A DNA stretch of 64,000 nt from Octopus sinensis (lineage: Eukaryota). The notes under the pieces were generated by a model. That model was not told where the DNA came from and did no database searches. It worked only from the letters and a program-made list of their open reading frames with translations. Where the stretch lies: contig NC_043001.1 in the NCBI RefSeq assembly GCF_006345805.1, positions 32,674,001-32,738,000 of the forward strand, in the 5' to 3' direction. How positions within the stretch are numbered: position 1 is the stretch's first letter; the number at the start of each line of letters is the position of its first letter. A program made the position numbers and the translations under genes. This document shows, piece by piece, positions 21,887 through 24,784 of the stretch.

Positions 21887-23430
21887 GTGAGGAAATTTAT
21901 CGACAGATGTGGAGCTGGTCTTATCGTGGACTCATGTTTGTAAAAAGAACAGAGGAACCAAGTGATGCCGTTAACCGGACAGAATTGTAATCCCAGTTTT
22001 TGAAGGAATTAAAAAAAAAATCTGTGATAGTCGATATCTTTTCAGAATTTTAACTCTCTCTGTCATTGGACAGAGTCCATGCTGGTGTGCCGCTTTGAAG
22101 CATTTAGTCGAATGAATCGACGCCAGGACTTATTCCGTCGGTATCTTTTAACAAACTGCTATTCTTTGTGGACGTAAGCAAACCAGCAGTAGCTGTCAAG
22201 CGGTGAAGTGGGGGCAGACACAAATGCAAAGACATACACAGGTGCGTGCGCTCACACAGGCGCACGTGCACTCACGCACATACACACACGCACACACGCA
22301 CACACGCACACACGTACGTACGCACATCCATCCATATATATATATATTTTTACAATCAAGGATAAAGTCTATATAGGATTTTATCAGGTAGTTACCATGT
22401 AAAACCTTTTTCCGACACTTTTTTTCTGCAAAATAGGGTTAGCTTATCCTGTTCAGGCTATATTATTAGCATTATCCTGTGTTTGAGAATTTAAAATCAC
22501 TTCTTTAACTTTCTAAGACATCTCAACGCTTCTAAAGCAAACTTTGTTTGTGTATGTTCATCGCAAATTTGAATTTTAGGTATAAATTAATACAAGGTAT
22601 ATAATTTTTTAGAATAAAAAATTATAAGGGCAAACTATATAGTTTTAGAGTCATTTGACGTCTTATTCTAGCATATGATACTAACATGTAACTGGCCCTT
22701 ATTATAATATGTATGTATGTATGTATGTATGTATGTGTATATATTATATATATATATATATATAATATATATATATATATATATATATATATATATATAC
22801 ACACATACATACATACATACATACATACATACATACATACATACATACATACATATATATATATATTATATATATATATATATATTTGTTGTGCAAGATT
22901 TTCTATGTGAAGTCGTTTATTGGCTAAACTGGCAAAATGACCATTCCGAAATATAACTATATAATATATATATATATATATATATATATATATATATATA
23001 TATATATATATATATATATATATATATATATATATATATATATATATATATATATATTCTTTTATTCTTTTATTCTTTTATACTTTTATTTATTTCTGTC
23101 ATTTGACTGCGGCCATGCTGGAGCAAGGCCTTTAGTCGAGCAAATCGATCTCAGCACTTATTTGTAATCCTAGTACTTATTTTAACGGTGTCTTTAGCCA
23201 AACCGCTAAGTTACGTGACATAAACACATCAACATCGGTTATCAAGTGATGGTTGGAGGACAAATATACACACACGAACATATACCTATATATAATATAT
23301 ATAATATATATATATAATATATATATATATATATATAAAATATTATTCGAGACAAAACCACTATTTTGCAAAACAAACAAGGAAAGACTTAATCAATACA
23401 TAAAATTTTAATAAATAGTCAAAAAAACCG

Positions 23431-23473
23431 CCACTACAATCGTTTCTTGTCTTGATCGACAATCTTCAGGTGG
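23431..23473 (-). ncRNA. Mirror copy of the same hammerhead motif
   Basis: Exact reverse complement of 23519-23561. Confidence 0.8.
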
Positions 23474-23518
23474 ACTTCCAATAATTCAGTGTCAAATTGA
23501 CACTGAATTATTGGAAGT

Positions 23519-23561
23519 CCACCTGAAGATTGTCGATCAAGACAAGAAACGATTGTAGTGG
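23519..23561 (+). ncRNA. Complete minimal type-I hammerhead ribozyme motif
   Basis: CCAC-CTGAAGA-TTGTC-gatcaa-GACAA-GAAA-C-gatt-G-TA|GTGG; predicted cleavage after 23557. Confidence 0.8.
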
Positions 23562-24784
23562 CGGTTTTTTTGACTATTTATTAAAATTTTATGTATTGAT
23601 TAAGTCTTTCCTTGTTTGTTTTGCAAAATAGTGGTTTTGTCTCGAATAATATTTTATAATATTTTACTATAAAATCGATTTAATCATAAATCTGATTTTT
23701 TTCCCTGTAAATTTGGATTTATTCCCTAATATTTATTATATATATATATATATATATATATATATATATATATATATATATATATATATATATATATATA
23801 TATATATATATGTATGTATATATATATATATATATATATAATATATATATATATATATGTATATATACGACGAGCTTCTTTCAGTTTCCGTCTACCATAT
23901 CCACTCACAAGGCCTTAGTCGGCCCGAGGCTACAGTAGAAGATACTTGCCCAAGGTACCACGGAGTGAGACTGAACCCGGAACCATGTGGCTGGAAAGCA
24001 AGCTACTTACTACACAGCTTGCAAAATTATCACAGAACTTACTCAGAGTTTCACGTTTCCGTTCGTCGGACAATCGATATATGTACGTATGTGCATATGT
24101 ATGTATGTATGTATGTATGTATGTATGTATGTATTATACACGTATCCACGCTGTCTTCAAACACTTTCCGCCAACCAAATCCACTCAAATGGCTCTGGTT
24201 GGCCCGGGGCTATAGAAGAAGGCACTCGCTCGAAGTGAGGTGCTACGTAGTGGGACTGAAACTCATGAACCCCTACCCGAATGATTGCAAAAGCAAGTTT
24301 CTTAATCATGCATACATGCCTTCGCACATGCGTAGAGCCATACCAATAAGAAGGTGTAGCAAGACCTCTTCTAAGTTGAAGAGGCAGTAGGTAACATTCA
24401 CAGCCTTCTTAAACTATTTCCTATCTGCTTTCCTTGGAATATTTAATCGTTTGATGTCAGACCACCTATTACGAGATGTTTCCCCCCACCTCTTAAACAC
24501 TCTCTAGAGTTAAGGTCTGTAAAAATGATTAAATAGTACATGGAAATCGTATATAAAATGCTAAAGTTAGCAATTGGTTGATGGGAATGCTTTAAAACCA
24601 TTAGGTGCTATTTTGTGATCGGTTTGTACTTGTGTTGGATGGGTGAATGGAGGTCTTTTCTTAGTTGCACATAACTGTAATTCACATTCTCGATTTATAA
24701 TAATAATAATAATAATAATAATAATAATAATAATAATAATAATAATAATAATAAAAATAATAATAATAAAAATCATAATAATAA

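Follow-up and report, generated by a model that had tools for sequence, protein, structure and literature searches.

Penelope-like elements (PLEs) of the Hydra clade, which were described by Craig et al. 2021 (PMC8557442) and include Hydra-1_Obim, encode a C-terminal GIY-YIG-type endonuclease. In the accessible part of that paper, the clade is marked by DKT replacing DKG, by a CxCx5C linker, and by CxxC and CxH motifs around a conserved E and N; its members carry hammerheads, target (TA)n, and leave an inverted 5'-truncated copy with a one-sided tail. The Octopus sinensis family that we describe here is like them in these respects. Inverted 5' copies, tails, hammerheads, TA targeting, and opposite-strand hammerhead pairs are all already in print (PMC8557442; PMC4209133); the pairs in Schistosoma are minimal hammerheads, 100-700 bp apart (PMC4209133). 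What the accessible portions of PMC3846280 and PMC8557442 leave open is the origin of the head-to-head ends and of the one-sided tail, the keeping of introns, and the polarity (sense or antisense) of the RNA template.

Penelope of Drosophila virilis resembles the octopus family in having a start site inside the terminal repeat and a 5'-UTR intron that ends beside the hammerhead, and most of its transcripts are spliced (PMC2377424 and PMC4209133, in excerpt). In an in vitro study (Frangieh et al. 2024, PMC11167929, accessible sections), the protein of PAc, a Poseidon element of Anolis, cut AT-rich DNA on both strands and extended each strand. Two internal RNA start sites delimit the tail, uncleaved RNA is the template, and the protein is predicted to dimerize. 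Metazoan non-LTR retrozymes, according to the accessible text of a preprint (bioRxiv 10.64898/2026.07.22.740005), resemble the octopus copies in being short, non-coding, and pLTR-derived, with a type I hammerhead and a palindromic helix III.

We analyzed a window of 64,000 nucleotides from O. sinensis (contig NC_043001.1, positions 32,674,001 to 32,738,000). An earlier reading of these letters alone (the sequence-only reading) had reported a 325-bp perfect palindrome in a repeat's (TA)n tract, and both statements are correct. The two arms (23334-23495 and 23497-23658) are 162 nt each and 100% complementary in the assembly sequence, with a 1-nt spacer. But the insertion is not a symmetric unit: beyond the palindrome, the right arm has another 81 bp and ends at about 23739. 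On either side are the remains of the target tract (23280-23333 and 23740-23867), and beyond these are the two halves of one abundant, SINE-like host repeat (5' half at 23095-23270 and 3' half at 23868-24016, both on the + strand). In 9 other copies of this repeat in the window, the halves are spaced 48-130 bp apart over a CA/TA tract, versus 597 bp here; the insert occupies the microsatellite that normally divides them. A second insertion of the PLE family lies in the same host repeat's TA tract elsewhere (L102:4178-3948), and it has a single arm with a donor shifted by +4.

The arms are copies of the spliced leader of a PLE. We number the leader from its inferred transcription start (position 1). 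The short arm (23334-23495, - strand) is the inverted leader, from position 172 to 11, and its outer end is the first of two fixed ends. The long arm (23497-23739, + strand) runs from position 11 to ~252, and its outer end, within the TA tract at ~23739, is ambiguous by a few bases. At the head-to-head junction (23494-23499, axis 23496), our parse takes the short arm to leader position 8 and the long arm from 11, with a 2-nt microhomology (TT) that is common to both arms. Between the two fixed ends is the 81-bp tail (23659-23739, + strand), which is present in one arm only; in the parents, the tail sequence runs on into the 5' UTR and then the ORF. The last 13 of the 23 nt of exon 1 are at 23497-23509 (+ strand). 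In long parent copies, a GTAAGT donor comes next, whereas in both arms here exon 1 is joined straight to exon 2 (23509/23510 on the + strand, mirrored at 23483/23482 on the - strand), and the parental GT-AG intron of 1.3-1.8 kb is precisely absent. The sequence-only reading had overlooked the spliced arms, the fixed but unequal outer ends, and the parental intron. The element's ORF is absent from the 32 frames of at least 120 aa that we checked in the window. We conclude that a new PLE family of Hydra type left the palindrome as a product of insertion, and that we are not dealing with a new mobile unit; as a locus, the palindrome is probably inert.

Each arm also contains the type I hammerhead motif that had been noticed (23519-23561 on the + strand and its mirror at 23431-23473 on the - strand). 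The plus-strand motif has stem I (CCAC/GUGG), CUGAAGA, stem II (UUGUC/GACAA), GAAA, and a 2-bp stem III with a self-complementary loop. The predicted cut is after 23557, or between 23435 and 23434 in the mirror. Rfam gave no hammerhead match at the gathering score over the window, and with a cutoff of E <= 10 for 23300-23760 there was no hammerhead among 16 matches, which were mostly to hairpin or miRNA models. So the motif stands on hand reading, on conservation in sister subfamilies, and on the fold of the dimer. The 43-mer has 1,607 exact matches in the genome while its reversed control has 0, so the motif is not due to chance. All 11 base pairs are kept in five subfamily variants (one with a compensatory change), and the differences between subfamilies lie in loop 2, at a free core position, and in the helix III loop; but this pair conservation was reached by 46 of 500 shuffles, which makes it statistically weak. 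The window has two more loose matches to CUGAnGA...GAAA (5392-5431 and 38581-38616, both on the + strand), which is about the chance level.

When two 43-mers are cofolded, the minimum-energy structure is a dimeric hammerhead (-21.4 kcal/mol). For the monomer in context, the minimum-energy structure is another hairpin instead of the full hammerhead fold. According to the fold prediction, RNA transcribed across the palindrome would be a single long hairpin (-275 kcal/mol), whose 161 perfect base pairs would mask the ribozyme. We predict that the hammerhead is a passenger here, in that the monomer is inactive, the dimer can fold, and the palindrome transcript hides it. About 14 arms start at the ribozyme's cut site, as compared to 8 that start one base further, which is no clear excess, so cleaved RNA would serve as a template rarely, if at all.

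The sequence-only reading had also suggested that the insertion was young, that it might be a PLE product, and that the arm be searched for across the genome. Using 23497-23740 as the query, we found 1,020 candidates, including 44 that are near-full-length and 98-100% identical, which fits a young insertion. Widely spaced pairs of hammerheads led to the autonomous element, which supports the PLE suggestion. Judging from its domains and motifs, the parent is an autonomous Hydra-clade PLE that encodes a reverse transcriptase (RT) and a GIY-YIG endonuclease. (An upstream search with the flank of one copy returned a single match, itself; the true upstream sequence is that of the intron-bearing parent.)

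A natural copy, L067, has a repeat unit of 5,728 bp with the same leader again at its end, which is well over the size of Hydra-clade elements ("generally" under about 3 kb in the accessible text of PMC8557442). It contains, in order, an inverted short arm, an upstream region, the 23-nt exon 1, the GTAAGT donor, an intron of 1,305 nt, a TTTTAG acceptor, and exon 2. Exon 1 starts within TCACTT, which is an initiator-like word. The hammerhead lies 9 nt into exon 2 and the ATG lies ~285 nt in; past the ATG are a frameshifted ORF of 2.5 kb, the 3' region, and the repeated leader. L067 has the architecture of EN+ PLEs, with a partial tandem (pseudo-LTR) that contains the hammerhead, an inverted 5'-truncated copy, and a one-sided tail. 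A donor-like CAG/GTAAG is present 13 nt after the ATG (L067:6340-6325, - strand). The 3' region (L067:3360-2640, - strand) includes a stretch flanked by poly(A) and internally repeated blocks, and may be captured sequence. The parents form three lineages, as set by the exon-1 word and by site 158, and each lineage has unspliced and spliced copies. The intron is ~1.3 or 1.8 kb, depending on the lineage.

The parent protein has an RT (YRDD) followed by a C-terminal endonuclease, and its motifs align with those of 12 relatives. There are 69 relatives with E <= 1e-10, many of which have PF26215. Pfam named neither RT nor GIY-YIG in the parent protein, and GIY-YIG was a weak hit, below the cut-off, in two of five relatives. 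The Hydra-clade motifs are evident in L070 and L194: SDKT (DKT for DKG), CTCRDKSNC (the CxCx5C linker), CYLC (CxxC), and CRH (CxH). At the position of the RWK motif, the parent has RIKWK and the relatives have RMRWK or RLRWK/R. One relative is named, from Hydra vulgaris (38% identity over 49%); the closest named partial match is from Octopus bimaculoides. By eye, Hydra-1_Obim (as given in the accessible part of PMC8557442) is a different family, as the start of the protein and the hammerhead differ. None of the three long copies that we examined (722, 710, and 761 aa) has an unbroken ORF from ATG to stop. In L067 (4850-4540, - strand), L192, L193, and L194, an asparagine-rich insert separates the RT from the endonuclease; similar inserts are described in rotifer Penelopes (PMC3846280, in excerpt). 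Other non-LTR retrotransposon ORFs adjoin some copies of the family (L071:1487-3568 on the + strand and L192:6799-7815 on the - strand). As to targets, of 128 C1 arms, 117 end in a TA-rich tract, 3 run on into the element's ORF, and 8 end elsewhere.

Compared to the Hydra clade as described in the accessible text of PMC8557442, this family is longer (5.7 kb versus under 3 kb), has a 5' intron of 1.3-1.8 kb and an N-rich insert in its ORF, and has a longer tail (81 bp versus 30-40). Also, most of its short copies are spliced.

Across the genome, we counted 1,395 exact matches to the spliced junction and 710 to the intron's acceptor. Intron-free copies thus outnumber intron-retaining ones by ~2:1, whereas Penelope of D. 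virilis keeps its 75-bp intron on transposition (PMC2377424 and PMC4209133, in excerpt). In two copies (both arms of L079, as well as L102), the donor is 4 nt further into the intron. In L076, the last 9 nt of the intron are kept after exon 1 in both arms, with no canonical AG, which could be an odd acceptor or a template switch.

At another locus, L065, both arms have host exons fused to exon 2 of the element, and the second host exon ends at a GTAAGT donor. The source exons (L116 and L117) are at C1:88.52 Mb and C1:88.59 Mb, 69 kb apart. L065:577-2792 (C1:96.56 Mb) is a 1.9-kb head-to-head retrocopy of the host transcript and includes the start of a short ORF. Among the exact matches listed for the acceptor, none lies on the + strand in the 4 Mb downstream of that gene's source exons. 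To go by its joints, L065 is a host mRNA that was spliced onto the element's acceptor and copied in the same way as the leader. We interpret the spliced junctions, the alternative donor, and the host donor as spliceosomal signatures of sense RNA, and we think it very likely that the leader was copied from spliced RNA. Among the public runs listed for the family, none is RNA. Four public contig sets, compared with the parent's 5' region, contain no joint across the intron; exon 1 is just 23 nt, none of the sets is recorded as RNA, and such contigs speak to presence and not to absence. We found no earlier report of spliced genomic copies of a PLE in the openly accessible literature, with older subscription papers outside the search.

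The 5' ends of the arms also resemble those of copied mRNAs. (Processed pseudogenes lose their introns and can gain an extra G from the cap.) For 49 of 62 arms, the 5' end is at leader positions 1-14. Among 265 arms with a complete exon 1, 140 have a G just ahead of position 1 in place of the parental C; of the other 125, the parental C is found in 33 of the first 100 listed. The partner arm could supply the extra G in 21 of 28 inspected loci, and likewise in 33 of 38 "AG" cases. In the remaining 7 of 28 loci the partner offers no explanation, and in two of these both arms carry the G. The extra G is likely a copied cap.

To describe the architecture of the insertions, we used 186 arms from 113 loci. 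Similarity decided the choice of the first 30 loci, and position on C1 that of the others. An arm that ends at ~172 is paired with one that ends at ~252 in 75 of the 76 head-to-head pairs, and the exception is an internal repeat. In the position-ordered C1 sample, 45 of 46 pairs have one long and one short arm, and unspliced copies have the same arrangement as spliced ones. The splice form agrees between the arms in all 29 of these 46 pairs that could be classified (P about 2e-6, given an expected mixed share of 0.37; the other 17 have a truncated or unreadable arm). Similarly, the arms agree at polymorphic site 158 in 66 of 66 pairs (0.44 expected) and at site 112 in 65 of 65. The arms diverge by 0.49% within pairs, as compared to 1.13% between pairs.

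Among 53 pairs, the more complete arm is the short one in 18 and the long one in 26, and the arms are equal in 9. For the C1 pairs, 7 of 31 were scored as having a short arm that is more complete by over 10 nt, but point changes disturbed some of the arm-end parses, and L039, L082, and L097 are the clean cases. There is no overlap whatsoever between the arms of L039 or between those of L082, whose long arms stop at 187 and 174, respectively. L083 and L086 are likewise non-overlapping, and they have the intron in the short arm only. At the junctions, the arms overlap by 0-6 nt in 41 of 53 pairs and are separated by small inserts in 12. Some insertions have 114-607 bp of other DNA between the arms (L004, L012, and L032). 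In L004 and L012, the intervening DNA copies the insertion's own flank, which suggests template jumps to target DNA before joining. Also, some loci have local tandems of whole insertions, whose junctions are identical or almost so (three units in L015/L016, and also L030, L071, L005/L006, and L066). These tandems probably arose by recombination between flanking TA tracts; the alternative is assembly error.

We propose that the palindrome consists of two head-to-head copies of the leader, and that the parent protein primed two cDNAs at fixed sites on one spliced sense mRNA; we put the probability of this reading at about 0.8. The parent would be transcribed from the initiator-like site TCACTT, and the intron would be spliced out. 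The RT/GIY-YIG protein would cut both strands of a (TA)n tract and bind the leader, and one cut strand would prime at ~252 and the other at ~172. Each cDNA would extend as far as the capped 5' end or stop short of it, and microhomology of 0-6 nt would then join the two 3' ends. One point against this reading is that copying the same stretch twice would need strand displacement. That both primings took place on one RNA is probable, with less assurance than we attach to the splicing: the agreement between arms could also arise if one source locus fed two RNAs, or from gene conversion after insertion, and some of the one-sided truncations could be later deletions. A spliced template would yield only the ~250-nt leader. 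Since this product lacks the promoter and the ORF, it is likely a dead end. Unspliced read-through RNA would give long intron-containing copies by the same reaction, and no other copies could be transcribed anew. Because spliced products lack the upstream region, the intron, and the ORF, only unspliced products would found new lineages, and intron "retention" would reflect the survival of products instead of the enzyme's ability to copy.

We weighed other ways to make these insertions. In one, a cDNA primed at ~252 snaps back and copies itself, and the endonuclease resolves the hairpin at ~172. Perfect arm agreement and the pairing of long with short arms would both be explained, and short self-complementary words abound in exon 1. 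Earlier authors suggested self-priming to account for inverted PLE junctions (PMC3846280) and resolution by a nuclease to account for the tail (PMC8557442). But an arm made by fold-back cannot contain sequence that was absent from the first cDNA, and yet the short arm is the more complete one in a third of the pairs (18/53, above). The non-overlapping arms of L039 and L082 cannot be made by fold-back copying, and L083 and L086, with the intron in the short arm only, pose the same problem. Zero-loop junctions with two complete arms (L056, and L195 with the extra G on both) would also be hard to form by snap-back. We consider fold-back unlikely. Antisense templates were also proposed (PMC3846280, accessible portion), to account for the retention of introns and for head-to-head repeats. 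The 710 intron-retaining acceptors would fit, but the 1,395 junctions are spliced at a sense-strand GT-AG, including alternative and host donors, and spliced copies share their long and short arms with unspliced ones. Our data argue against this proposal of antisense self-priming, which now seems very improbable.

The sequence-only reading had entertained a non-coding unit that propagates itself, with the inversion axis shared across copies; the palindrome would be transcribed and then re-inserted by the PLE enzyme. A few junctions do recur (4, 3, and 2 times among 40), one 5'-end context has 102 exact matches, and a few palindromes are in local tandems (L015/L016, L030, and L071). But the 40 junctions, which come from 70 independent pairs, are of 34 types, so the axis varies. 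The window's junction is unique among the 40, and its axis recurs in L080, which is of another subtype. Recurring junctions are at self-complementary spots of exon 1 and span all three exon-1 subtypes and different site-158 alleles. Spliced copies are found in each of the three parent lineages, the copies lack the intron and anything upstream of the start, and the unit's transcript would be a perfect hairpin. We have largely abandoned this idea. The palindrome might instead be a fold-back artefact of reads or assembly, as perfect palindromes are a known artefact of long reads. Against this, the insert has flanks that are not mirror images of each other, and the two halves of the host repeat remain colinear on either side of it. 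The 70 independent loci have unequal fixed ends and different axes, and contigs from two other public runs join the fixed ends to TA repeats (both ends in X5 and the long end in X9). We give an artefact almost no weight. Finally, a non-LTR retrozyme was rejected because the pairs are head-to-head and their ends lie at 172/252 and close to the start instead of at the ribozyme's cut.

Priming of two cDNAs on one spliced RNA is related to twin priming in L1, where the second strand is likewise primed on the one RNA and a 5' inversion results. But here two fixed internal sites each start a copy of the same stretch of RNA and poly(A) priming is not involved, so that a palindrome arises and not a simple inversion. 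For PAc of Anolis, the accessible sections of PMC11167929 neither treat splicing nor connect the pair of start sites with the paired arms of a single insertion. Also, those start sites are in the ORF, while ours are upstream of the ATG. We found no earlier report, in the openly accessible literature, that assigns two start sites to two arms. Unlike the retrozymes in the accessible text of the preprint (bioRxiv 10.64898/2026.07.22.740005), the octopus copies do not form head-to-tail tandem monomers, their ends are off the cleavage site, and they are continually re-made from coding parents.

This family is a natural experiment on the mechanism of PLEs. With a long intron just 23 nt from the start, every insertion carries an internal marker that records the state of its template. 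The marker points to sense RNA, to one template for both arms, and to spliced RNA as the commoner substrate. We lean somewhat towards a broader view, in which the copies are a fossil record: both strands would be primed on one capped and spliced sense RNA, the inverted repeat and the tail would be the two primings, intron retention would be survivor bias, and host transcripts that are spliced onto exon 2 would be retro-copied as palindromes. L065 shows a route for the duplication of host mRNAs. The family also offers an RNA of ~250 nt and a (TA)n target for a direct test in vitro. If our reading is true, then hundreds of perfect hairpin templates have been seeded in the genome, and these could silence the parent or feed RNA editing. 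It would also show how PLEs build their inverted ends, and that introns need not be kept.
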